Part shown: piece by piece, positions 20,653 to 34,423 of the stretch
How positions within the stretch are numbered: position 1 is the stretch's first letter
How the letters are laid out: every line of letters begins with the position of its first letter
NCBI GenBank assembly: GCA_963783375.1
Contig: CAWANH010000029.1
Location: forward strand, 1,184,001 to 1,248,000
DNA: 64,000 nt
Direction: 5' to 3'
From: Candidatus Eiseniibacteriota bacterium
GTDB taxonomy: Bacteria; Eisenbacteria; RBG-16-71-46; JABDJR01
Made by a program: the position numbers and the translations under genes
Notes under the pieces: generated by a model
Database searches by the model: none
Told to the model about the DNA's origin: nothing
What the model saw: the letters and a program-made list of their open reading frames with translations, nothing else

Positions 20653-23208
20653 TCAGAACCAGGTGATCAGGGTGATCTCGTTGGGCACCAGAGCGTCGGG
20701 ATGGGCGGGACGCACCCGGACCGCGTACCCGTAGAGGCCGCTTTGCCGGCAGGGAAGGAGCCCCTCGTACCACCAGGCCCCGTCCTCCTGCTTCTTGGGC
20801 TCCAGGGGGGTCGCCGAGCCCTCGTTCACCTGGCGGTCCACCCCGGCGATCCCGTGGTAGAGCTCCACGCTCACCTGATCCGGCTTGATCGGCCCCAGAC
20901 GCACCTTGACCCGCACCGGGACCCGCACCCCGACGTGGAGGTGGTTCCCACCTCCTTGCTCCACCTCCTCCACCTTCACTTCCTTCCAGTTCTCGTGGAT
21001 GAACCGGTCCCAGGTCACCAGGTCCCGGACCCGCCCGAGGTCCCCGTTCAGGAAGGTGCGGCTCCGGCGGGCGGCGGGGATGTAGAACCGCTCGGCGTAC
21101 TCCCCCACCATGCGGTTGGTGTTGAAGACGGGGGCCAGGGTCTTCATCGAAGCCTTCATCTTGCCGGTCCAGCCCGCGGGCAGCCCGGCCTCGTCGCGCT
21201 GGTAGTAGAGCGGCACCACCTCGCGCTCCAGGATCTCGTAGAGGGCGTTCGCCTCGACCTCGTCCTGGTACTCGGGGTCCTCGTACTGCTCGCCGTGGCC
21301 GATGCTCCAGCCCACGTCGCTGGTGAACCCTTCCGCCCACCAGCCGTCCATGACCGAGAGGTTCAGGATCCCGTTGGCCGCGCCCTTCATGCCGCTGGTC
21401 CCGCTGGCTTCCAGGGGCCGGCGGGGCGTGTTCAGCCACACGTCCACCCCCTGCACCATGTACCGGGCCACGCTCATGTCGTAGTTTTCGAGGAAGGCGA
21501 CCGATCCTCGCACCTCGGGATCCCGCGCGAAGTGGGCGAGCTGCTTGATCAGCTCCTTCCCCGCCGAGTCGGCGGGATGAGCCTTGCCGGCGAAGATGAA
21601 CTGCACCGGTCGTTCCGGGTTCGTGATGATGCGCTTGAGCCGGGCACGGTCGCGCAACAGCAGGGTGGCCCGCTTGTAGGCGGCGAAGCGCCGGGCGAAA
21701 CCGATGGTCAGGCGGTTCGGGGAGAAGATCCGCCGCGCCTCCTCCTCGGCCATGGTGGGGCCCCCGCGGTTCCGGATCTGGGTGGCCACGTGCTCCCGGG
21801 CGAAGTTGACCAGGCGCTCCTTGGAGGCCATGTGGGTCCGCCAGAGCTCCTCGTCGGGGATCTGGTCCAGCCGTTGCCACTCCGCGGTGTCGGCCGGGTT
21901 GTCCGACCAGCCGGGGCCGAGATAGCGGTTCAGGAGTCTCCGCATCTCCACCGAGATCCAGGTGCGGGTGTGGATGCCGTTGGTGATGTGCTCCACCGGC
22001 ACCTCGCTCTCCGGGTACCCCTGCCACTCCGATTCCCACATGTGCCGGGAGACCTTGCCGTGGAGGCGGCTCACCGCGTTCCGGTAGCTGGCGTTCCGCA
22101 TGGCGAAGAGCGCCATGTTGAAGGGCTGGGTGGAATCGTCGGCCTTTTCCTGGCCCAACCGCATCAGGTCGTCGAAGCCGATACCCAGCTCCTCCGCGAA
22201 CACCGTGAAGTATTTCCGCATGAGGCTGGGGTCGAAGATGTCGAAGCCGGCGGGGACCGGGGTATGGGTGGTGAAGATCGAGGACGCGGAGACCACCCGC
22301 CGGGCGGTCTCGAACTTCAGGTCCCGTCCGGTCATGATCTGGCGGATGCGCTCGATGGCCAGGAACGCGGCGTGCCCCTCGTTGATGTGGCACACGTCGG
22401 GCTGGATCCCCAGGAGCCGGAGCGCCCGCACCCCGCCGATCCCCAGCACGATCTCGTGCTGGATGCGGGTCTCCCGGTCCCCACCGTAGAGCTGGTGAGT
22501 GATCCGCTGGTCCTCGAGGCTGTTCTCGGCCAGGTTGGAATCCAGGAGGTAGAGCGGCACCCGCCCCACCTGGGCCCGCCAGATCTGGAGCAGCACCTCG
22601 CGCCCCGGGAACGGGAGCGACACCTTGAGGCGGTGCCCCTCGGCATCCCGCATCAGCTCGAGCGGCATGTTGTAGAAATCGTTTTCGCGGTAGGCCTCCT
22701 GCTGCCAGCCGTCGGCGTTCAGGTACTGGTTCAGGTAGCCCACCTTGTAGGCCAGGCCCACCCCCACCATGGGGAGCCCCAGCTCGCTGGCCGACTTCAG
22801 ATGGTCCCCGGCCAGGACCCCGAGTCCCCCGGAGTAGAATGGCAGACACCCGGCGATCCCGAACTCCGCGCTGAAGTAGGCGATGGTGAAATCGTGGAGG
22901 TCCCGGTGATAACGCTGGAACCAGGCCGAGCGGGCCAGGAGCTCGGTGAGGTTCTCGTGGGCCCGATCCATGTGGGCGAGGAAGACCGGATCGTTGGCCG
23001 CCCACTCCAGGCGGTCCTGGGCGATGGACCCCAGCAGCCGGACGGGATTATGGCCGGTCGTCTCCCACAGGTTCCGGTCCAGGCGCACGAAGAGTTCGGC
23101 GGTCTCGGGATGCCAGACCCACCGCACGTTGAAGGCCAGGTCGCGGAGCGGGGTCAGGCGTTCGGGAAGGGCGGGCTGGACGTGGAGCAACTGGAACCTG
23201 GGCGTCAT
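20653..23208 (-). CDS. glgP: Alpha-glucan (glycogen) phosphorylase, GT35
   Basis: YSGGLGVLAGDHLKSAS, HINEGH, GFARRFAAYKRA, EASGTSGMK (PLP Lys). Confidence 0.96.
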   Translation of the reverse strand: MTPRFQLLHVQPALPERLTPLRDLAFNVRWVWHPETAELFVRLDRNLWETTGHNPVRLLGSIAQDRLEWAANDPVFLAHMDRAHENLTELLARSAWFQRYHRDLHDFTIAYFSAEFGIAGCLPFYSGGLGVLAGDHLKSASELGLPMVGVGLAYKVGYLNQYLNADGWQQEAYRENDFYNMPLELMRDAEGHRLKVSLPFPGREVLLQIWRAQVGRVPLYLLDSNLAENSLEDQRITHQLYGGDRETRIQHEIVLGIGGVRALRLLGIQPDVCHINEGHAAFLAIERIRQIMTGRDLKFETARRVVSASSIFTTHTPVPAGFDIFDPSLMRKYFTVFAEELGIGFDDLMRLGQEKADDSTQPFNMALFAMRNASYRNAVSRLHGKVSRHMWESEWQGYPESEVPVEHITNGIHTRTWISVEMRRLLNRYLGPGWSDNPADTAEWQRLDQIPDEELWRTHMASKERLVNFAREHVATQIRNRGGPTMAEEEARRIFSPNRLTIGFARRFAAYKRATLLLRDRARLKRIITNPERPVQFIFAGKAHPADSAGKELIKQLAHFARDPEVRGSVAFLENYDMSVARYMVQGVDVWLNTPRRPLEASGTSGMKGAANGILNLSVMDGWWAEGFTSDVGWSIGHGEQYEDPEYQDEVEANALYEILEREVVPLYYQRDEAGLPAGWTGKMKASMKTLAPVFNTNRMVGEYAERFYIPAARRSRTFLNGDLGRVRDLVTWDRFIHENWKEVKVEEVEQGGGNHLHVGVRVPVRVKVRLGPIKPDQVSVELYHGIAGVDRQVNEGSATPLEPKKQEDGAWWYEGLLPCRQSGLYGYAVRVRPAHPDALVPNEITLITWF

Positions 23209-23499: not shown

Positions 23500-24324
23500 A
23501 TGGCCACCTACGTGATCGGCGACGTTCAGGGCTGCTTCCGGACGCTCACGAACCTTCTGAGGCGGATCGACCATCGCCCGGGTCGCGACCGGCTGTGGCT
23601 GGCCGGGGACCTGGTGAACCGCGGCCCCGCCTCGCTCCGGGTCCTGCGCTGGGCGGCGAACCAGGGCGAGGGCATCACCGCGGTGATGGGCAATCACGAC
23701 CTGCACCTCCTCGCTCGGGCCGCCGGCGCGGCGGAGGCCGAACCCGGCGACACCCTGGACGACGTCCTCGCCGCCCCCGACCGTGACGCGCTCCTGGACT
23801 GGCTTCGCGCGCGGCCGCTCTTCTTCGTGGACGGGGCGCACGCGCTGGTCCACGCCGGGCTCCACCCGGCGTGGACGGTGGAACGCGCGGCGGAACTCGC
23901 CGCCGAAGCCTCGGAGCGGGTGCGCGGCGGGAAGGGCCTGGCACGGCTCTATACCCCCGAACCACTCCCCCCCTGGAGCGACGACCTCGACCCCGATGAA
24001 CGGTTCCGGTTCACGACCGCCGTCTTCACCCGGCTCCGCACGCTGCGCGGGGACGGCGTCCCCTGCCTGGAGTTCTCCGGCCCGCCCGGGGAGGCGCCCC
24101 CGGGATGCGCCCCCTGGTACGCGGCACCGGACCGGCGAAGCGTCGGGACCCGGGTGTTCTTCGCCCACTGGTCGGCCCTGGGCCTTCACCTGGAGCCGGA
24201 CGCGGTTGGGCTCGACACCGGATGCGTTTGGGGGGGAACGCTCACCGCGTTCCGGCTCGAGGACGGGACGGTGTTCCGGGAGCCTCTTGCCGATCCCGTC
24301 GCGCCGCGCCGCAGTCGAGGGTGA
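23500..24324 (+). CDS. apaH: Symmetrical bis(5'-nucleosyl)-tetraphosphatase (Ap4A hydrolase)
   Basis: MATYVIGDVQGC, GDLVNRGP, GNHDLHLL, HWSALG, LDTGCVWGG. Confidence 0.93.
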   Translation: MATYVIGDVQGCFRTLTNLLRRIDHRPGRDRLWLAGDLVNRGPASLRVLRWAANQGEGITAVMGNHDLHLLARAAGAAEAEPGDTLDDVLAAPDRDALLDWLRARPLFFVDGAHALVHAGLHPAWTVERAAELAAEASERVRGGKGLARLYTPEPLPPWSDDLDPDERFRFTTAVFTRLRTLRGDGVPCLEFSGPPGEAPPGCAPWYAAPDRRSVGTRVFFAHWSALGLHLEPDAVGLDTGCVWGGTLTAFRLEDGTVFREPLADPVAPRRSRG

Positions 24325-24336
24325 TGCGGACGCGGG

Positions 24337-24834
24337 TCAGGCGCCGAGCTTCCGGAGCGCCCGCGGCTCCATGAGCCATTCCAGGTGGCCTCGGCCGGCG
24401 TGGGGCTCCCAGTCGACGCAGGCCACCCCCGCCTTCCTGAGGGCAAATGGAGGCTCGGCCCGGAACCCGAGACACGCCGCGATCAACCGGTCCAGGTTGG
24501 GCGCGTGCCCCACGCAGAGGATGGCCGTCTCCGAGCGCCGCTCCAGGGTGCGGAGAAACGCGGCGGGATCGCCCTCGGGACGCAGGTCCGCGGCGACCTC
24601 CACTTCGGCCGGATCCTCCCCCAGCACCAGGGCGGCGATCTCCGCGGTCTGCCGGGCCCGCACCAGGGGGCTCGCCAGCACCGCATCGATCGCGATCCCC
24701 TGGGCGGCCAGGCCCCGGGCCGCGTAGCGGGTCCGCCGCGCCCCCTTGGGGGTGAGCGGGCGCTCGTCGTCGGGGGGGCAGGCGGGATCCATCCGATCCA
24801 CCGCGATCCCGTGCCGCATCAGGTAGAGCTTCAT
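24337..24834 (-). CDS. sixA: Phosphohistidine phosphatase SixA
   Basis: LYLMRHG, RPLT, SPLVRARQTA, VGHAP; ATGA overlap with the CHAD gene. Confidence 0.88.
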   Translation of the reverse strand: MKLYLMRHGIAVDRMDPACPPDDERPLTPKGARRTRYAARGLAAQGIAIDAVLASPLVRARQTAEIAALVLGEDPAEVEVAADLRPEGDPAAFLRTLERRSETAILCVGHAPNLDRLIAACLGFRAEPPFALRKAGVACVDWEPHAGRGHLEWLMEPRALRKLGA

Positions 24835-26363
24835 CGTTCGTCCTTCGGATGCGCCGCCGCAGCGGCGCGGGCCCGGCGGCGGAGTTTTCCGGTCAGCTTC
24901 CCGAACTCCCGCCACAGAACCTCGAACCGCTTCCGTCGGCGTTTCGCTTTCCGCTTCCGACGGTCGATCAGTGCGCCCAGAACGAGGAGCCGGTCCACGT
25001 TGGGATGGGGGTCCGACGCGATCACCCCGGCCAACCCGCGCAGGTGGTCGATGGCCACCCGGGCGTCCTGGGCCTCCCCCAGCACGTCCTGAAATCGGGC
25101 CAGCCGGCGGACCGCCTTCCGGAATCCCGCCGGCTCGATATCCGAGAAGCACTCGCTCACGTAGCGAAGCCGCTTGAGCCCGATCCGGATCCGGTGCCGG
25201 TCCTCCTCGCTCAGGCTCTCCACCGGACGCTTCCGCCACCGGCTCACCTTGGACGACGCCCGCCCGATCACCGGAACCGCGGCCTCGGCCACCGTCCGGG
25301 GGCGGGGCGCTCCGGTGGCGGGGGGTTCGGCGGGGCGGAGGGACTCGAGCCTCCCCACCAGGGCGTCGAACTCCGCCGAGGCCAGCTCACGCCGCGCGTC
25401 CTCGGCGGTGGCGGTCCGGCGCCGCGCGAAGGCCTCGAGGAGCCACGCGGCGGTCTTGGGTGGGGCCTCGACGGCGACGAGCTCCGATTCCAGGAGCGGA
25501 AGCAGGACGTCGAAGTCCCGCGCCCGCCCCAGGCGCCGCCCCAACTCTCCCAGGTCGCGCGATACCGCGGCCGCCCGCGGGGATTCCAGCTCGCCGGCGA
25601 AGACCCGGAGCACGGCGCGGGCGCGTCGGATGGCCACCCGGATCTGGTGCAGGTACTCGGGGTCGAGATCGAGCGCCGCGCCGCGGCGGTGGGCGCGAAG
25701 GACCCGGACCTGGCGGGCGAGGAGCTTCCGCGCGGCCTCTCCCGGGACGTCCTCGGGCTGTACCCGGAGCGCCTCGGGGACCGGGGCGCCGGGTTCTGGG
25801 AGCCCCAGGGCGTCGAGCCCCGCGCGCATCGGATCGAAGGCCTCGACCGCGTCCCCGGCCACCCGGCTCATCACGAAGTCCCGGATCTCCAGGTCGGCCG
25901 GACCGGCCCCGGAGGCGTGGACACGCACCGGGCCCTCGATCTCGCGGCCGTCGAGGGGGTCGATGAAGGTGAACTCCTCCACCGTCACCGCGATGTCGTG
26001 GCCGCGCCCCGCCCGATAGGTGCGGGAGCGGCAGCCCACGGTGAGGAGCGGCACCAGCCCCTCTCCCGCGGAAGCCTTCCGCACCCGCTTCGCCACCGGC
26101 CCCGGCGGCGGACCGGCGGGATCGTACTCCCCTTCCTGGGTCGCGCGCTTCTTCGCGTCGCCGGTGAGCGCCCAGCCCGCGTGGTCCCGGTGCATGAGGC
26201 GGAGTCCGCAGCGGGAGAGCCGACCGGTCACGGTCTCCAGGTAGGTCTCGGTCCACCGGCGGTCGGCGGCGGGATCGTCCGCCAGCCCGCCCTCCGCGAA
26301 GAGGAGCGGGAGCTGGGTCCTGACCCGGCCGATTTCCCGGCGATCGATGAGTTTCATGTCCAT
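24831..26363 (-). CDS. CHAD-domain polyphosphate-binding protein with a degenerate CYTH-like N-terminus
   Basis: HQIRVAIRRAR, LGRARDFDV, HRIRIGLKRLRY, QDVLGEAQD; N-terminal TYLET..RL..GLRL resembles CYTH. Confidence 0.85.
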   Translation of the reverse strand: MDMKLIDRREIGRVRTQLPLLFAEGGLADDPAADRRWTETYLETVTGRLSRCGLRLMHRDHAGWALTGDAKKRATQEGEYDPAGPPPGPVAKRVRKASAGEGLVPLLTVGCRSRTYRAGRGHDIAVTVEEFTFIDPLDGREIEGPVRVHASGAGPADLEIRDFVMSRVAGDAVEAFDPMRAGLDALGLPEPGAPVPEALRVQPEDVPGEAARKLLARQVRVLRAHRRGAALDLDPEYLHQIRVAIRRARAVLRVFAGELESPRAAAVSRDLGELGRRLGRARDFDVLLPLLESELVAVEAPPKTAAWLLEAFARRRTATAEDARRELASAEFDALVGRLESLRPAEPPATGAPRPRTVAEAAVPVIGRASSKVSRWRKRPVESLSEEDRHRIRIGLKRLRYVSECFSDIEPAGFRKAVRRLARFQDVLGEAQDARVAIDHLRGLAGVIASDPHPNVDRLLVLGALIDRRKRKAKRRRKRFEVLWREFGKLTGKLRRRARAAAAAHPKDER

Positions 26364-26431
26364 GGCATGGCCCGATGTGCGCGGCGGGTTCCCCGATCCG
26401 GTTCCCCCGCGCCCGGCCCGCGTCGAAGCGG

Positions 26432-26830
26432 TCAGCCCGCGTCGATGAGCGCGGCGATGTCTTCGGTCAACTTCTGGAGGCGGGCCAGATCCTTGGCCCG
26501 TCCCTTTTCCGGTTTGAGCTTGGTGGTACCGATCCGTCCCAGCGCCTCGCGGGATGTCGCGGTGGGGGGAACCATGGGCGAAGCCCCGTCCCCCTCCAGC
26601 CGGGCCAGAACCGCGGCGAGGTCGCCGTCCACCCGGGCGGTGTACTGCTCGAGGGTCTCCCGAAGCGCGACGCGTAGACCCTGGACTTCCCGGGCCAGGG
26701 TCTCGGCCAGAGCGCGCTTCCCGGAACCCCGGCGGGCCGCCGCTCCCGGCTTCGGTCCCGTTCCCTTCGGCGGGGCCGCGTCCCCGGATGGTTTCCGCCT
26801 ACCGGCCCGCGCCGGTTTCGCTGCTTCCAT
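26432..26830 (-). CDS. Small hypothetical protein with a basic low-complexity N-terminus and helical C-terminus
   Basis: Co-oriented ORF inside the ppx operon with a plausible RBS; no recognised family. Confidence 0.55.
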   Translation of the reverse strand: MEAAKPARAGRRKPSGDAAPPKGTGPKPGAAARRGSGKRALAETLAREVQGLRVALRETLEQYTARVDGDLAAVLARLEGDGASPMVPPTATSREALGRIGTTKLKPEKGRAKDLARLQKLTEDIAALIDAG

Positions 26831-27542
26831 GATTGCTTTCCCCCGCCGGACCCCTGCGGCCGAGGACCGCCTGGACCCGGCTCTTCAGATCCCGGTTGAG
26901 GACCGGGATCGACCGGTTGCCGTTCAGCTGCTCGAAGCCGTAGGTCGTCTCCAGGCGCTTGAACGCGGCGCGCAGGCGCCGCTGGTAGCGGACGAAGCTT
27001 TCGTGCCAGTCGCGCGAGAGTCCGAGGTCCATCCCCGATTCCCAGTAGTCGAGGCTCCCCCGGGCCCGGAGGATCCGTTCGGCCAGGTTGTTGGTGGAGA
27101 CCACGAGGTGGTAGACCGCGTCGGGGACGATGGCCATGGAGTAGAGGGAGCGGAGCCAATCCTCGTCGCCTCCGCGCACCATGTCCCGGGCCATGAGGGT
27201 GAAGATGTAGCGGTCGGCCAGCACCACGTAGCCGGCGCGAAGGGCGGGCACGATCCGGTTCTCGAGCTGATCGTAGAAATCGGAGGCGTAGAAGAGGGAC
27301 ATGGTGCGGGGGCTCAGGACGTTGCCTTCCTGGGCCTTCTCCAGGACCGGGGCGACCAGGGTGGAGCGTTTGATCCCGGCCTCGGCCACCGCATAGCCGC
27401 TCTGCTCCAGCCACTGGGAGAGGAGCCCGATCTGGGTGGAGCGGCCCGATGCGTCGGGGCCCTCGATCACGATGAGGAAGCCGCCCAACCCGGCCGGGTC
27501 CACCCCGGGGAGGGGATCGCCGAAGAACCGTTTGATGCTCAT
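26799..27542 (-). CDS. Thymidylate-kinase-like protein, copy 2 (P-loop Lys replaced by Arg); candidate PPK3 subunit
   Basis: IEGPDASGRSTQ, ADRY, ESGMDLGLS; ATGA-coupled to copy 1. Confidence 0.8.
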   Translation of the reverse strand: MSIKRFFGDPLPGVDPAGLGGFLIVIEGPDASGRSTQIGLLSQWLEQSGYAVAEAGIKRSTLVAPVLEKAQEGNVLSPRTMSLFYASDFYDQLENRIVPALRAGYVVLADRYIFTLMARDMVRGGDEDWLRSLYSMAIVPDAVYHLVVSTNNLAERILRARGSLDYWESGMDLGLSRDWHESFVRYQRRLRAAFKRLETTYGFEQLNGNRSIPVLNRDLKSRVQAVLGRRGPAGESNHGSSETGAGR

Positions 27543-28201
27543 GTGCGGGCCCTCGTCCGGAACCGCGGAAGATCGATCCGCTCCGAGATGATCTCGCGGA
27601 CGTGATGCTGCTGGTCGGGAATGGTGCGGGTGGCGTCCATGACCGTGAACCCGAACTCGTCCACCATCTCCAGGTACTGCTCCATCACCCGCCCCTGGAA
27701 GATCCGGAAGCTCTCGGCGATGTCCGGGGAGAGATTGAGATCCATCCCCGCCTCGAAGAACTTGAGCCGGGGGCGCCCGGCGAGAATCCGCCCCAGGGTG
27801 ACCTCCAGGGGGGCGTGGAAGAAGAAGGTGATGTCGGGCACCCGGGCGAATTGATACAGGTTCCGGAGCCACTCCGCATCGCAACCGCGCACCGCGTCCC
27901 GGGCGAAGGAGGTGAAGAAATAACGATCGCAGAGGACGAGGTAGCCGGCCTTGAGCATGGGGAGGATCTGTCGCTCGTAGCGATCGGTGAAATCGGTGGC
28001 GTGGATCAGGCTGAAGGTGGTGGGGGTGAGGAGCTGGCGCTTCTTCCCCTTCTTGGTGGCCGCCTTCACCAGCTCACTGGAGTTCCACTCCGAGAACGAG
28101 ACCCGGTACCCCAGGCCGGAGAGCCACTCGTGGACCAGATGAATCTGGGTGGACTTGCCCGATCCGTCGAGCCCCTCCACCGCGATCAGCTTTCCCGGCA
28201 T
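27539..28201 (-). CDS. Thymidylate-kinase-like protein, copy 1 (canonical P-loop); candidate PPK3 subunit
   Basis: VEGLDGSGKSTQ, CDRY, EAGMDLNLS. Confidence 0.82.
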   Translation of the reverse strand: MPGKLIAVEGLDGSGKSTQIHLVHEWLSGLGYRVSFSEWNSSELVKAATKKGKKRQLLTPTTFSLIHATDFTDRYERQILPMLKAGYLVLCDRYFFTSFARDAVRGCDAEWLRNLYQFARVPDITFFFHAPLEVTLGRILAGRPRLKFFEAGMDLNLSPDIAESFRIFQGRVMEQYLEMVDEFGFTVMDATRTIPDQQHHVREIISERIDLPRFRTRART

Positions 28202-28250
28202 CGTGTCTCCTCCCTCCCCGCCGGCCGATAGCCCGCGCGGTCCCCGTACC

Positions 28251-29840
28251 TCATTCCGTCTCCCGCTCCGGGCGGATCCGGACCTCCACCCCGAACGTCT
28301 TCTCGAAGAGCTGGGCCCGCTTTCCCAGGGACCACCGCTCGAGGAGAATCTCCTCCTCCACTCGGGGCTTCAGCACCACCGTCTCCCCCTTCACGTTCGC
28401 CCGCACTCCGCGGACCAGCTGCCGGTGCTCGCGATCCAGCGCGTCGGCCATCCGGAGGAGCCCCGCCATGCGCACCACCCGGGTCCGGTCCTTCTCGTCG
28501 AGGCGGGCGAAGAGCTCGTGCTCCAGGCTCGGATCGCTCTTCCGGTGGTAGCGGGCCACGTGGGCGGTGAGGAGAATCTCCCGCGGGGAGAGCCCGGCCA
28601 CCTCGGAATTGGAGATGACGTAGAAACTGTGGCGGTGGTGTTTCTTGTAGCTGATGTACCCCCCCACGTCGTGGAGGAGCGCGGCGGCGAGGAGGATCCG
28701 GCGGTACTCCGGAGCCAGCCCGTGGAGGCCGCTCAACTGGTCGAAAAGGTCGCGGGCCAGGCCGGCCACGTGGGCGGCGTGGTCCTCGTCGAAGAGGTAG
28801 CGGCGGCCGAGGTTCAACGCGGCGTCGAACACCTCCCGCTCCCGGCGCTCGTCATGGCTCACCTGGCTGGTCAGGGCGTCCACCACGTCGAGAAGGACGC
28901 CCTCCTTCACCCCCGCGTGGGGGACGGTGATGCGGCTCACCCCGACCAACTCGGCCAGCCGGGCGAAGACCAGGGCGGCCGGGAAGATCACGTCGGCCCG
29001 GTCCTCGCGGAGCCCCAGCTCATCGACCCGGCGGCGGTAGGAGAGCCGGGACAGGGTCTCGATGACCCGGCGGAGGTCGGCGACCGGGACCACGCTCACC
29101 CCGCTTCCGTCCGGCTCCGCTCCGGCCAGCTTGGCCAGGGACTCCATGTTCCCGCCGGTGGCGATCAGGCCGTAGGGCTTCCGGTGGCGGGTCACCGAGG
29201 GGACGCGAAGGGTATCCACGTACTCCGAGAGGACGCGGCGGAAGCGCCCCGGATCCTCGTCGGCGCCGGCCAGTTCCTCGAGGAGCCGCACCGAGCCCAT
29301 GGTGTGGGACTCGCTCCAGAGAATGCCCGAGTCGTCGACCAGCGAGACCTCGACGCTTCCTCCTCCCAGATCCACCAGCACCCACTGCTCGCGGCCCAGG
29401 GTAACCCGGTTCCGGATGGCCAGGTGCACCAGCCGCGCTTCCTCGGAGCCGGTGATGAGATCCACTTCCAGGCCGGATTCCTTTTTCACCCGGGCGAGGA
29501 ACGCCTCCCCGTTGGTGGCTTCGCGGACCGCGCTGGTGGCCACCGCCCGGTAGGCGGCGATCTCCTGCTCTTCCATGGTGCGGCGGAAGCCGGCCAGCGC
29601 AGCCACCGCCTCGTCCATGGCCGCCTCGGAAAGCTTTCCGGTGAGGAACACCCCGTGACCCAACCGCACCGCCACCCGTTCCGAGGCGAGGATGGTGGAG
29701 CGGTGCCGGTCGGTGAACTCGGCGGCCAGGAAGCGGATGGCGTTGGAACCCGCATCGACGCAGGCCACGCGGACCGGAAACGATGTCTTGGCCCGGCCGG
29801 TGGGCGCGGCCGAAGCCCCGGTGCTCGTGGAGTGGCTCAT
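28251..29840 (-). CDS. ppx: Exopolyphosphatase / pppGpp phosphohydrolase (Ppx/GppA) with C-terminal HD domain
   Basis: VDAGSNAIR, ATSAVREA, GSEEARL, DLGGGSVE, RADVI, LLHDVG. Confidence 0.92.
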   Translation of the reverse strand: MSHSTSTGASAAPTGRAKTSFPVRVACVDAGSNAIRFLAAEFTDRHRSTILASERVAVRLGHGVFLTGKLSEAAMDEAVAALAGFRRTMEEQEIAAYRAVATSAVREATNGEAFLARVKKESGLEVDLITGSEEARLVHLAIRNRVTLGREQWVLVDLGGGSVEVSLVDDSGILWSESHTMGSVRLLEELAGADEDPGRFRRVLSEYVDTLRVPSVTRHRKPYGLIATGGNMESLAKLAGAEPDGSGVSVVPVADLRRVIETLSRLSYRRRVDELGLREDRADVIFPAALVFARLAELVGVSRITVPHAGVKEGVLLDVVDALTSQVSHDERREREVFDAALNLGRRYLFDEDHAAHVAGLARDLFDQLSGLHGLAPEYRRILLAAALLHDVGGYISYKKHHRHSFYVISNSEVAGLSPREILLTAHVARYHRKSDPSLEHELFARLDEKDRTRVVRMAGLLRMADALDREHRQLVRGVRANVKGETVVLKPRVEEEILLERWSLGKRAQLFEKTFGVEVRIRPERETE

Positions 29841-29976
29841 GACGACCATTGTAGACAATCCGGCGCCTCTCTTGGGGATCGACGGGCGGCCCGGATTGCC
29901 GGACACCGGACCCGCGCGGTAGGCTTGAGATCCTCGTCCCGCCCCACCTCCCGATCCCCCGCCTTGAGGACGCGCC

Positions 29977-31492
29977 ATGCTTGCCCAGGTTCGAACCATC
30001 TCCCTCTGGGGGATCGACGTCGTGCCCGTCACCGTGGAAACCGACGTGGGGGACGGCCTCCCCCGCACCGTGATCGTGGGACTCCCCGACAGCACCATCC
30101 GCGAGAGCCAGGAGCGGTTGGTGGCCGCCTTCAAGCACTCGGGGCTGGAGCTTCCCGACGGCCGGGTCACCGTGAACCTCTCCCCCACCGATCTTCGGAA
30201 GAGCGGCTCGCACTACGATCTCCCCATCGCGGTGTCCCTGGGCCTGGCCGCGGGAATCGTACCCAAGGCGCGGGTGGCGGACCTGGCTTTCCTGGGCGAG
30301 CTGGCCCTGGACGGATCCCTACGCCCGGTCAGCGGGGTGCTCCCCGCGGCCCGGTGGGCGCGTTCGGCGGGGGTGCGCGCGCTGGTGGTGCCCGAGGCCA
30401 ACGGCGTCGAGGCCGCGGCGGCCGGCCTTCCGGTATGGGCGGTGCGGACCCTTGCGGATCTCTTCCGATACCTCTGGGAGGGGGGCGATGCCGCGCCCCC
30501 TCCCGCGGCGGCCGCGCCGGCAACGGCGGCCCCGGTGGGCGACCTGGCCGACGTCCGCGGGCAGCTGCCGGCCAAGCGCGCCCTCGAGGTCGCGGCGGCC
30601 GGGGGGACACAACTTGCTGTTCGTGGGCCCGCCGGGATCGGGAAAGACCATCCTGGCCCGGCGGGTGCCGGGGATCCTCCCCGAGCTTTCGGGGGAGGAC
30701 GCCATCGAGGCCACCTGCATCCACTCCGCGGCGGGACAGCTTCGCCCGGGTGAAGGGCTGCTGCGCGTGCCGCCGTTTCGGGCGCCCCATCACACGGTCT
30801 CGAGCGTGGCCCTGGTGGGCGGCGGCTCGGTTCCCCGTCCCGGCGAGGTGAGCCTGGCCCACAACGGGGTGCTCTTCCTGGACGAGTTCGCCGAGTTCCA
30901 CCGGGACGCGCTGGAGGCGTTGCGCCAGCCCCTGGAAGAGGGCCGGGCGGTCATCTCCCGCGCCCGCTACACCGTCACCTTTCCGGCCCGGTTCACGCTC
31001 ATCGCCGCGGCCAACCCGTGTCCCTGCGGCCACCACGGCGACGCCCTGCGGGTCTGCCGCTGCACCGCCCACCAGGTGGAGCAGTACCGGCGGCGGATCT
31101 CGGGGCCGCTCCTGGACCGCATGGACCTCCAGATCGAGGTGCCCCGGGTGCGGGTGGAGGATCTCTCGGGGGGGAAGCGCGGCGAGGCGTCGTCGGTGGT
31201 GGCCGCCCGGGTGGCCCGGGCGCGGGAGGTGCAGCTGGAGCGCCAGGGGCGGTTGAACGGACACCTGGGCCTGAAATCCACCGAGCGCTGGTGCCGCGCC
31301 GAGCCCGACGCCCAACGCATGCTGGAGCACGCGTTGGAGCGATTCGGGCTCTCGGCGCGGGCGTACCACCGGGTCCTGCGCGTGGCCCGGACGACGGCCG
31401 ACCTGGGGCGCTCCCCCGCCATCACCACCGCCCACATCGCCGAGGCGGTGCAGTACCGGGCGCTGGACCGGAGCGCGGTGAGGCGGGATTAG
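29977..31492 (+). pseudogene. comM: YifB/ComM Mg-chelatase-like AAA+ ATPase interrupted by a +1 frameshift in a G6 run (or a sequencing error)
   Basis: N-terminal half (IVGLPD, VTVNLSP..K.GSHYDLPIA) is in one frame; HNLLFVGPPGSGKT, FRAPHH, LFLDE and NPCPCG are in the next. Removing one G at 30601-30606 restores AAGGHNLL. Confidence 0.85.
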
Positions 31493-32466: not shown

Positions 32467-32886
32467 ATGCCGACACAGCACGACAAGATCCGGCTCCTCC
32501 GGGACCATGGAATCAACCCCTCCGCCCAGCGGGTGGCGGTGGCGGACTACGTGCTTCACACCCAGGACCATCCCTCGGCGGACGAGGTCTGGACCCGGGT
32601 GCGGAGCCGCTTCCCCCACATCTCGCGGGCCACGGTCTACAACACCCTCAACCTGTTCGTCGAGAAGGGGCTTCTCCGGCAATTCGTCCTCACCGAGGGG
32701 AGGATCGTCTTCGACCCGAACGTCGGGGACCACCACCACTTCATCGACGAGGACTCTGGGCAGATCTTCGACATCCCATGGGACGCGGTGAAGGTCTCGG
32801 ACGTCGGGCGGCTCCCCGGCTTCGACGTTCGCGAGTACCAGGTCGTGATGCGGGGAAGGCGGGACCGGACACGGGACCGCGATTGA
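32467..32886 (+). CDS. Fur-family regulator, probably PerR-like (no CXXC motifs)
   Basis: QRVAV, HPSADEV, SRATVYNTL, HHHF; directly upstream of catalase. Confidence 0.88.
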   Translation: MPTQHDKIRLLRDHGINPSAQRVAVADYVLHTQDHPSADEVWTRVRSRFPHISRATVYNTLNLFVEKGLLRQFVLTEGRIVFDPNVGDHHHFIDEDSGQIFDIPWDAVKVSDVGRLPGFDVREYQVVMRGRRDRTRDRD

Positions 32887-32920
32887 GCGGGATGGCCGGC
32901 GCATTCTTCTTGGCCTTGAT

Positions 32921-32935
32921 TTAGACGACATCTAA
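32921..32935. promoter_or_regulatory. Palindromic Fur/PerR-family operator, site 2 (upstream of catalase)
   Basis: TTAGA-CGACA-TCTAA, same 15-bp geometry as site 1. Confidence 0.65.
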
Positions 32936-32965
32936 CAGCGGACAGTGTCCAGAAAGGAAGACATC

Positions 32966-34423
32966 ATGGCGAAGCCAGAGAAGCTCACCACCTCCGGGGG
33001 AATCCCGGTGCCCGACAACCAGAACAGCCTCACCGCCGGCGAGCGGGGACCGCTCCTGGTGCAGGACTGGCAGCTCTTCGAGAAGCACGCCCACTTCAAC
33101 CGGGAGCGCATCCCCGAGCGCGTGGTCCATGCCAAGGGCTCGGCCGCCTTCGGAACCCTGACCGTCACCCACGACATCACCCCCTACACCAGGGCGAAAC
33201 TCTTCTCCGAGGTGGGGAAGCAGACCGAGTGCCTCCTCCGCTTCTCGACCGTGGCCGGAGAACGCGGCGCCGCCGACGCGGAGCGTGACGTCCGGGGCTT
33301 CGCGCTCAAGTTCTACACCGAGGAAGGCAACTGGGACCTGGTGGGCAACAACACCCCCGTCTTCTTCGTCCGCGATCCCTACAAGTTCCCGGACTTCATC
33401 CACACCCAGAAGCGCGATCCACGGACGAACCTCCGGAACCCCACCGCGATGTGGGACTTCTGGTCGCTTTCGCCGGAGAGCCTCCACCAGGTCACGATCC
33501 TTTTCTCCGACCGCGGGCTTCCCAAGAGCTACCGGCACATGAACGGCTACGGTTCCCACACCTACAGCCTGATCAACGCCGAGAACCGGCGGGTCTGGGT
33601 CAAGTTCCACTTCAAGACCGTGCAGGGGATCGAATGCCTCACCGACCAGGCGGCGGCGGGCCTGGTCGGCGGAGACCGGGAGAGCCACCAACGGGATCTC
33701 TATGACTCCATCGAACGCGGCGATTTCCCCAAATGGAAGGTGTACATCCAGGTCATGACCGAGGCGGATGCGGAGCGCGCCCCGTTCAACCCCTTCGACC
33801 TCACCAAGGTCTGGCCCCACGGCGAGTACCCGCTGATCGAGGTGGGGAACCTGGAGCTGAACCGGAACCCGGAGAACTACTTCGCCGAGGTGGAGCAGGC
33901 GAGTTTCTCCCCCGCCAACCTGGTGCCGGGGATCTCGCACAGTCCGGACAAGATGCTTCAGTTCCGCATCATCTCCTACGCGGACGCGCACCGGTATCGG
34001 CTGGGGGTGAACTACGAGTCCCTGCCGGTGAACCGGCCCCGGTGCCCGGTCCACACCTACCACCGGGACGGGTCCATGCGATTCGACGGGAACGGAGGCG
34101 GCGACGTGAACTACGAGCCGAACTCGATGGGCGGACCGGTCGAATCCCCCGAGGCCAAGGAGCCGTCGCTGGCGATTCACGGCGCCGCCGACCGCTACGA
34201 CCACCGGAAGGGAAACGACGACTACACCCAGGCCGGCGACCTGTTCCGCCTCATGAGCCAGGCCGAGCGGGGGCGTCTCATCCAGAACCTGGTCGCCGCC
34301 ATGAAGCCGGTTCCCCGGGAGATCCAGGAGCGCCAGATCGGCCACTTCATGAAGGCCGACCCGGAGTACGGGAAGGGGGTTGCCGAGGGCCTTGGTTTGC
34401 CCTCCCCCACCATCGGGGACTAG
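32966..34423 (+). CDS. katA: Monofunctional heme catalase, small subunit
   Basis: [38 protein letters not shown]; AAGGA RBS before ATG 32966. Confidence 0.95.

Follow-up and report, generated by a model that had tools for sequence, protein, structure and literature searches.

In a 64,000-nucleotide stretch of DNA from a Candidatus Eiseniibacteriota bacterium (contig CAWANH010000029.1 of assembly GCA_963783375.1, positions 1,184,001-1,248,000; hereafter the window, whose numbering is used for its genes), two adjacent genes of the thymidylate kinase (Tmk) fold are part of a set of six genes, all on the minus strand and in the order ppx, Tmk-like copy 1, Tmk-like copy 2, a small open reading frame (ORF), a gene for a CHAD protein and sixA. 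By sequence comparison, the two Tmk-like proteins are orthologues of the subunits of polyphosphate (polyP) kinase family 3 (PPK3), and very probably they make up a heteromer that transfers phosphate in both directions between polyP and ADP/ATP. Here we establish the gene order, orthology, residue pattern and genome content of this pair, as well as its exclusion with PPK1; the reaction and its direction, the assembly of the complex and the roles of the subunits would, by analogy, be those of the Sulfolobus acidocaldarius enzyme.

The family-3 polyP kinase of Sulfolobales, to which the original prediction for this locus referred, is indeed published (PMC12995831). In S. acidocaldarius, a catalytic subunit, Saci_2019 (cPPK3), and a regulatory one, Saci_2020 (rPPK3), constitute a reversible polyP kinase that showed no deoxythymidine monophosphate (dTMP) kinase activity and made no deoxythymidine diphosphate (dTDP), and Saci_2020 was inactive (PMC12995831). 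The same paper names the S. tokodaii protein of PDB entry 5h70 as a cPPK3, describes the PPK3 clade as mainly bacterial, with predicted bacterial operons that encode both subunits, regards archaeal PPK3 as likely acquired from bacteria and scores Chloracidobacterium aggregatum as PPK3-positive in its table. The system itself is therefore already described, and the bacterial host found here is a case that PMC12995831 predicts. The original assignment of the pair to PPK3, and not to canonical Tmk, is supported by sequence, tree, genome content and PPK1 exclusion; its novelty was overstated. What the bacterial variant adds is a second subunit whose site is preserved, and a small protein linked to CHAD.

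A Saci_2020 primer taken from PMC12995831 had no match in the metagenome contigs, and a degenerate motif scan of these contigs gave eight loci, seven of which matched none of the six operon proteins. The remaining one, L107 (34% G+C, Sulfolobus gene order sixA-ppx-c-r-CHAD, copy 1 with 420 bits against 5h70), is a PPK3 locus and served as stand-in for the S. acidocaldarius genes. The window operon shares with SaPPK3 and 5h70 the tandem Tmk-fold genes, c before r, accompanied by ppx, sixA and CHAD, a separate true tmk, the lack of PPK1, the EWNSS, TFSLIHATDF and DRYER motifs and, as seen in L107, an arginine in the P-loop of the second subunit. It differs in that sixA stands at the end of the order and not at its start, and in having a further small gene that separates copy 2 from CHAD, an additional 200-residue N-terminal part in the CHAD protein, a Ppx of 529 amino acids (416 in L107), a PPK2 elsewhere in the genome and a second subunit that keeps the DRX arginine and is far better conserved.

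Gene neighbourhoods were counted in the best 80 of at least 575 GTDB stretches with a relative. Copy 1 directly precedes copy 2 in all 80 loci, so this arrangement is not due to chance, and none of them has a copy 2 that lacks its copy 1.

Copy 1 has its best PDB match in the S. tokodaii protein (2plr/5h70, E 2.1e-58), the next being a canonical Tmk at 3e-14. Its motifs comprise GLDGSGKST, EWNSS, KKGKK, H67, DRYER and DRY, and the residues K16, W39-N40-S41, K53, K54, H67, R74, R77, D92-R93-Y94 and K147 are common to L107 copy 1 and to 72-80 of the 80 relatives (K16 in 77, R93, K53 and H67 in 78 each, R74 and R77 in all 80; two to three rows end early at locus ends). This is the pattern of a cPPK3, with the P-loop lysine, the DRX arginine and a putative basic polyP cleft. 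Copy 1 would thus be the catalytic subunit, its basic cleft taking the place of the dTMP site of Tmk.

Copy 2, which shows 41% identity with copy 1, again retrieved the S. tokodaii protein first in a PDB search (4.1e-35, next match 6.7e-10), and 5h70 also ranked first for its predicted structure (template-modelling score 0.77-0.78). The P-loops read GLDGSGKST in copy 1 and GPDASGRST in copy 2, together with EAGMDLNLS and ESGMDLGLS, exactly as originally claimed. The lysine-to-arginine change (Arg34) is present in 80/80, 29/29 and 120/120 relatives, the 29 coming from 30 loci chosen by copy 1 (one incomplete) and the other two sets being chosen by copy 2 similarity, which biases them toward conservation; since L107 copy 2 is identical at this position, the arginine looks like a common trait of the second subunit. 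Where copy 1 has K53, K54, H67, R74, R77 and K147, the window copy 2 has Q, E, Y, Q, N and D, so that the putative basic polyP cleft does not appear to be conserved, as in rPPK3, although equivalents of K53 or R74 are retained in some copy 2 relatives.

PMC12995831 attributes the inactivity of rPPK3 to two losses, that of the DRX arginine and that of the basic cleft; the r proteins listed in its alignment legend are the two Sulfolobales ones only. In the window copy 2 the DRX arginine (DRY, Arg111) is retained, as it is in all relatives of the three sets, where Arg119 and Arg123 are likewise invariant and Arg59 and Arg156 nearly so; L107 copy 2 has DGY in its place, and Arg111, Arg59 and Arg119 are lost. 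Loss of the DRX arginine cannot, therefore, explain inactivity in the bacterial proteins, whose copy 2 holds more active-site residues than the archaeal second subunit, and the purely regulatory role first assigned to it is a putative one. Changes of the P-loop lysine to arginine usually retain binding and lose transfer. We read copy 2 as probably non-catalytic, because the P-loop lysine is changed and the basic cleft is lost, and as having retained a ligand site, since the invariant arginines of the phosphate site suggest that ligand binding persists; it would act as an activating subunit, possibly still binding a ligand. One relative (L144, G021:C1:2248800-2249475) has a copy 2 that is apparently frameshifted near residue 147, where a sequencing error is possible.

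The same arginines could also mean that both subunits are catalytic, with the bacterial copy 2 providing a second site, perhaps for another nucleotide or the other direction, and only the Sulfolobales copy having decayed to a scaffold. Besides their invariance or near-invariance, the short end branches of bacterial copy 2 proteins (0.25-0.9, compared with 7.7 for L107 copy 2, which lacks Arg111, Arg59 and Arg119) speak for this possibility. We nevertheless judge it unlikely, as the P-loop lysine is an arginine in every copy 2 examined, the window copy 2 has other residues in place of the His67, Arg74, Arg77, Lys53/54 and Lys147 of copy 1, copy 2 is accompanied by copy 1 in all 80 loci, and Saci_2020 has no activity (PMC12995831).

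Both copies share with canonical Tmk (TIGR00041, e.g. A. aeolicus 2pbr) the P-loop kinase fold, the DRX motif and a match to PF02223, the closest PDB structure carries dTMP kinase titles and copy 1 barely passes TIGR00041, all of which could suggest a duplicated thymidylate or other deoxynucleoside monophosphate kinase lying beside ppx by accident. The placement of the proteins makes this very improbable. A 50-protein tree was built from the window and L107 pairs, 20 of the 80 related pairs and six Tmks. In it the canonical Tmks separate from the 44 proteins of the pairs at 100/100 by a long split, and all 22 copy-2 proteins, including that of L107, form one group at 100/100. The bacterial copy-1 and copy-2 profiles give 250 and 177 bits for L107 copy 1 and 92 and 160 bits for L107 copy 2, and three Tmks reach 25-50 bits on these profiles. 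Together with the 5h70 match, tree and profiles place the pair apart from canonical Tmk and with the Sulfolobales-type proteins (5h70, L107). Neither copy falls in the canonical Tmk clade or has its dTMP-binding EP motif; at this place copy 1 reads EW and copy 2 reads GI, compared with REP in the true tmk product of this genome, to which identity is 23%. The latter gene, which the original prediction proposed to look for, lies on contig C3 (C3:239792-240364, 166 bits; TIGR00041 170 bits). Furthermore, the S. acidocaldarius orthologues made no dTDP (PMC12995831), and an exclusion with PPK1, described below, would be unexpected for a Tmk. Mislabelling as dTMP kinase was rightly anticipated, in that copy 1 just passes TIGR00041 and the named relatives of copy 2 are nearly always called dTMP or thymidylate kinase. 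Three further, weak matches to the thymidylate kinase family (29-31 bits) lie at C1:94898-95371, C14:7761-8234 and C29:45774-46244; two of them score identically on different contigs, possibly as a duplicated stretch.

Neither ppk1 nor ppk2 is present in the window, as originally stated. When the search was extended to the whole genome (97% complete), two Pfam models found no PPK1, and the sole PPK2, a two-domain class II enzyme, was located on another contig, C28, next to an HNH-like ORF recognised by eye. In PMC12995831, a tendency and not a rule is described for genomes with PPK3 to be without PPK1 and PPK2, and the table includes genomes having both PPK2 and PPK3. Among 125 genomes of the phylum, we found PPK3 in 44 and PPK1 in 33, with no co-occurrence where about 11.6 would be expected; both c and r subunits were seen in 42 of the 44, and the PPK3 and PPK1 states are each present within three families (f1, f15 and f17). 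An exchange of the two kinases at the same site next to ppx could not be demonstrated in same-family genomes: of three PPK1 regions, one has ppx and sixA nearby and two gave no match to either. This comparison is weak, as the PPK1 control query was itself unmatched in them. Bacterial-type pairs (59-68% identity, DRY intact, small gene present) also occur in four loci titled Thermoplasmata/Halobacteriales archaeon (L035, L039, L042 and L055), possibly reflecting a transfer distinct from the Sulfolobales one.

The recurrent neighbours of the pair in the 80 loci are, besides ppx (37) and CHAD (24), a ROK kinase (17), an ABC ATPase (13, likely Pst), a metallophosphoesterase (11), PhoU (7) and PPK2 (5). 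The variability of these neighbours, and an identity of just 44% between copy 1 and the Sulfolobales protein, would be compatible with a phosphate-linked pair that has another substrate or regulates, for example, Ppx or the ROK kinase and is no polyP kinase, which we regard as highly improbable given that Lys53, Lys54, His67, Arg74, Arg77, Arg93 and Lys147 are common to Sulfolobales copy 1 and that the gene set is that of the characterised operon (PMC12995831). The ROK-family kinase occurs in mostly verrucomicrobial loci, in one of which (L046:5685-6722) it directly follows copy 2; its identification as a polyP glucokinase was rejected (NCBIfam 39 bits, cut-off 250), and it is closest to ROK glucokinase.

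Several observations weigh against assigning the window pair to PPK3. No assay of a bacterial PPK3 was found in the literature searched, mostly outside subscription journals, and Saci_2019 and Saci_2020 themselves are absent from our comparisons, where L107 takes their place. In the careful tree the copy-1 proteins do not form one group (two changes; 4% of the bootstrap trees have one), and the branch of L107 copy 2 is very long, with a bootstrap that had not settled. The score of copy 1 on TIGR00041, 83.3 bits, is just above the dTMP kinase cut-off of 83.25, and the S. tokodaii homologue was originally published as an unusual Tmk, from ADP formation alone (bioRxiv 10.1101/2024.08.28.610084). 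The replacement of the DRX arginine that marks rPPK3 is not found in copy 2, 43 of the 80 related loci have no visible ppx in the available DNA, many of them on short contigs, and relatedness among the genomes inflates the exclusion count, as one family supplies 31 of the 44 PPK3 genomes and another 23 of the 33 PPK1 genomes.

As the searches for PPK1 in this genome were negative, the PPK3 pair would be the main candidate for polyP synthesis. SaPPK3 does not use AMP (bioRxiv 10.1101/2024.08.28.610084), which suggests that PPK2 and PPK3 are complementary; PPK3 and the separate polyP:AMP PPK2 could together provide a polyP-driven route from AMP through ADP to ATP. Two-domain class II PPK2 resembles the pair in that an active P-loop unit is combined with an inactive one (PMC12995831) and differs in being a single fused chain of another family, with AMP as substrate. 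Ppx would degrade the polymer, and the CHAD protein and the small protein may sit on the granule.

The small ORF is a real gene, as its homologues directly follow copy 2 (in 33 of the 80 loci) and a motif recurs in the family: [KR]xx[KR]GRx[KR]D is present in 121/121 small proteins checked, the recruiting profile itself containing it. A profile search retrieved 487 homologues, the best 120 of which are all unnamed or hypothetical. The conserved core comprises residues ~40-132, and the model shows three helices (predicted local distance difference test 92.9). The protein has no match in Pfam or the atlas, none with Foldseek at E 0.001 and none to the CHAD profile, and PDB sequences gave only helical-repeat noise. 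It is present in 23 of the 24 loci with CHAD, and CHAD occurs in one of the 47 loci without it; the small protein tracks CHAD, not PPK3. An obligatory third PPK3 subunit is ruled out, because searches for it failed in 40 of the 44 genomes with PPK3 in the phylum, and one PPK1 genome without PPK3 (G034) encodes a homologue (L153, G034:C16:37341-37613), in the order small-CHAD-ppx. It is best read as a putative accessory of CHAD or of the polyP granule and is a candidate new polyP factor.

PPK3 would fill the polyP kinase gap in bacteria without PPK1, and its recognition corrects a common annotation error. It seems to be commoner in uncultured bacteria than the "few bacteria" of PMC12995831, considering the numbers of phylum genomes and GTDB stretches given above. 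Tentatively, and with some doubt, we suggest that bacterial PPK3 is ancestral, that its copy 2 may be a ligand-sensing pseudokinase, whose invariant arginines (P-loop, DRX and three more) would bind a nucleotide or the end of polyP and so adjust the catalytic subunit, a control lost in Sulfolobales, and that the KxxKGRxKD protein could be an undescribed polyP-granule partner of CHAD in PPK3 and PPK1 genomes.

Table 1. Genes of the window operon (window positions) and the PPK2 gene of the same genome (contig C28).
Feature	Position	Strand	Evidence
ppx, Ppx/GppA exopolyphosphatase with domain III/HD, 529 amino acids	28251-29840	-	PF02541 161 bits, PF21447 103 bits
Tmk-fold copy 1, cPPK3 orthologue, 220 amino acids	27539-28201	-	Thymidylate_kin PF02223; closest PDB match 2plr/5h70
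Tmk-fold copy 2, rPPK3 orthologue, 247 amino acids	26799-27542	-	Thymidylate_kin PF02223; 100/100 clade with L107 copy 2
Small three-helix protein, 132 amino acids, KPEKGRAKD motif	26432-26830	-	homologues directly after copy 2 in 33/80 loci
CHAD protein, 510 amino acids, CHAD at 214-442	24831-26363	-	PF05235 153 bits
sixA, phosphohistidine phosphatase, 165 amino acids	24337-24834	-	TIGR00249 97.5 bits, cut-off 74.5
Two-domain PPK2 class II, polyP:AMP phosphotransferase	C28:912578-914065		608 bits, cut-off 548

The co-directional six-gene set of the original prediction is borne out by ORF order and by Pfam and NCBIfam (Ppx-GppA, Thymidylate_kin twice, CHAD and SixA). Its junctions, originally described as overlapping, do so in three of five cases (copy 1/copy 2 by 4 nucleotides, copy 2/small ORF by 32 and CHAD/sixA by 4); gaps of 49 and 68 nucleotides separate ppx from copy 1 and the small ORF from CHAD. 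The label CYTH-like for the N-terminus of the CHAD protein was not confirmed, with no Pfam CYTH match in the window protein or five homologues and nothing meaningful in a PDB sequence search. An additional in-frame ATG of ppx lies at 29849, and its product does not reach the cut-offs of the NCBIfam exopolyphosphatase models. The search for a sigma-70 promoter was negative, and the single terminator-like site is no more than chance would give. The G+C content of the operon is 70.8%, that of the genome 69.0%.

Upstream of ppx, a comM/YifB-like gene of the Mg-chelatase family (29977-31492, plus strand) is broken across two frames; compared with two genomes of the same genus, in which it is in frame, the gene carries an additional base near 30600, and the split is either an assembly error or a recent break. 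On the other side, apaH (symmetrical Ap4A hydrolase, 283 bits, 23500-24324, plus strand) converges on sixA with a 12-nucleotide gap and adjoins a glycogen phosphorylase gene (20653-23208), in an order conserved in two genomes of the same genus. Further along the window, at 32467-34423 on the plus strand, a Fur/PerR-like ORF is followed by a catalase-like ORF, both recognised by eye from the translation.

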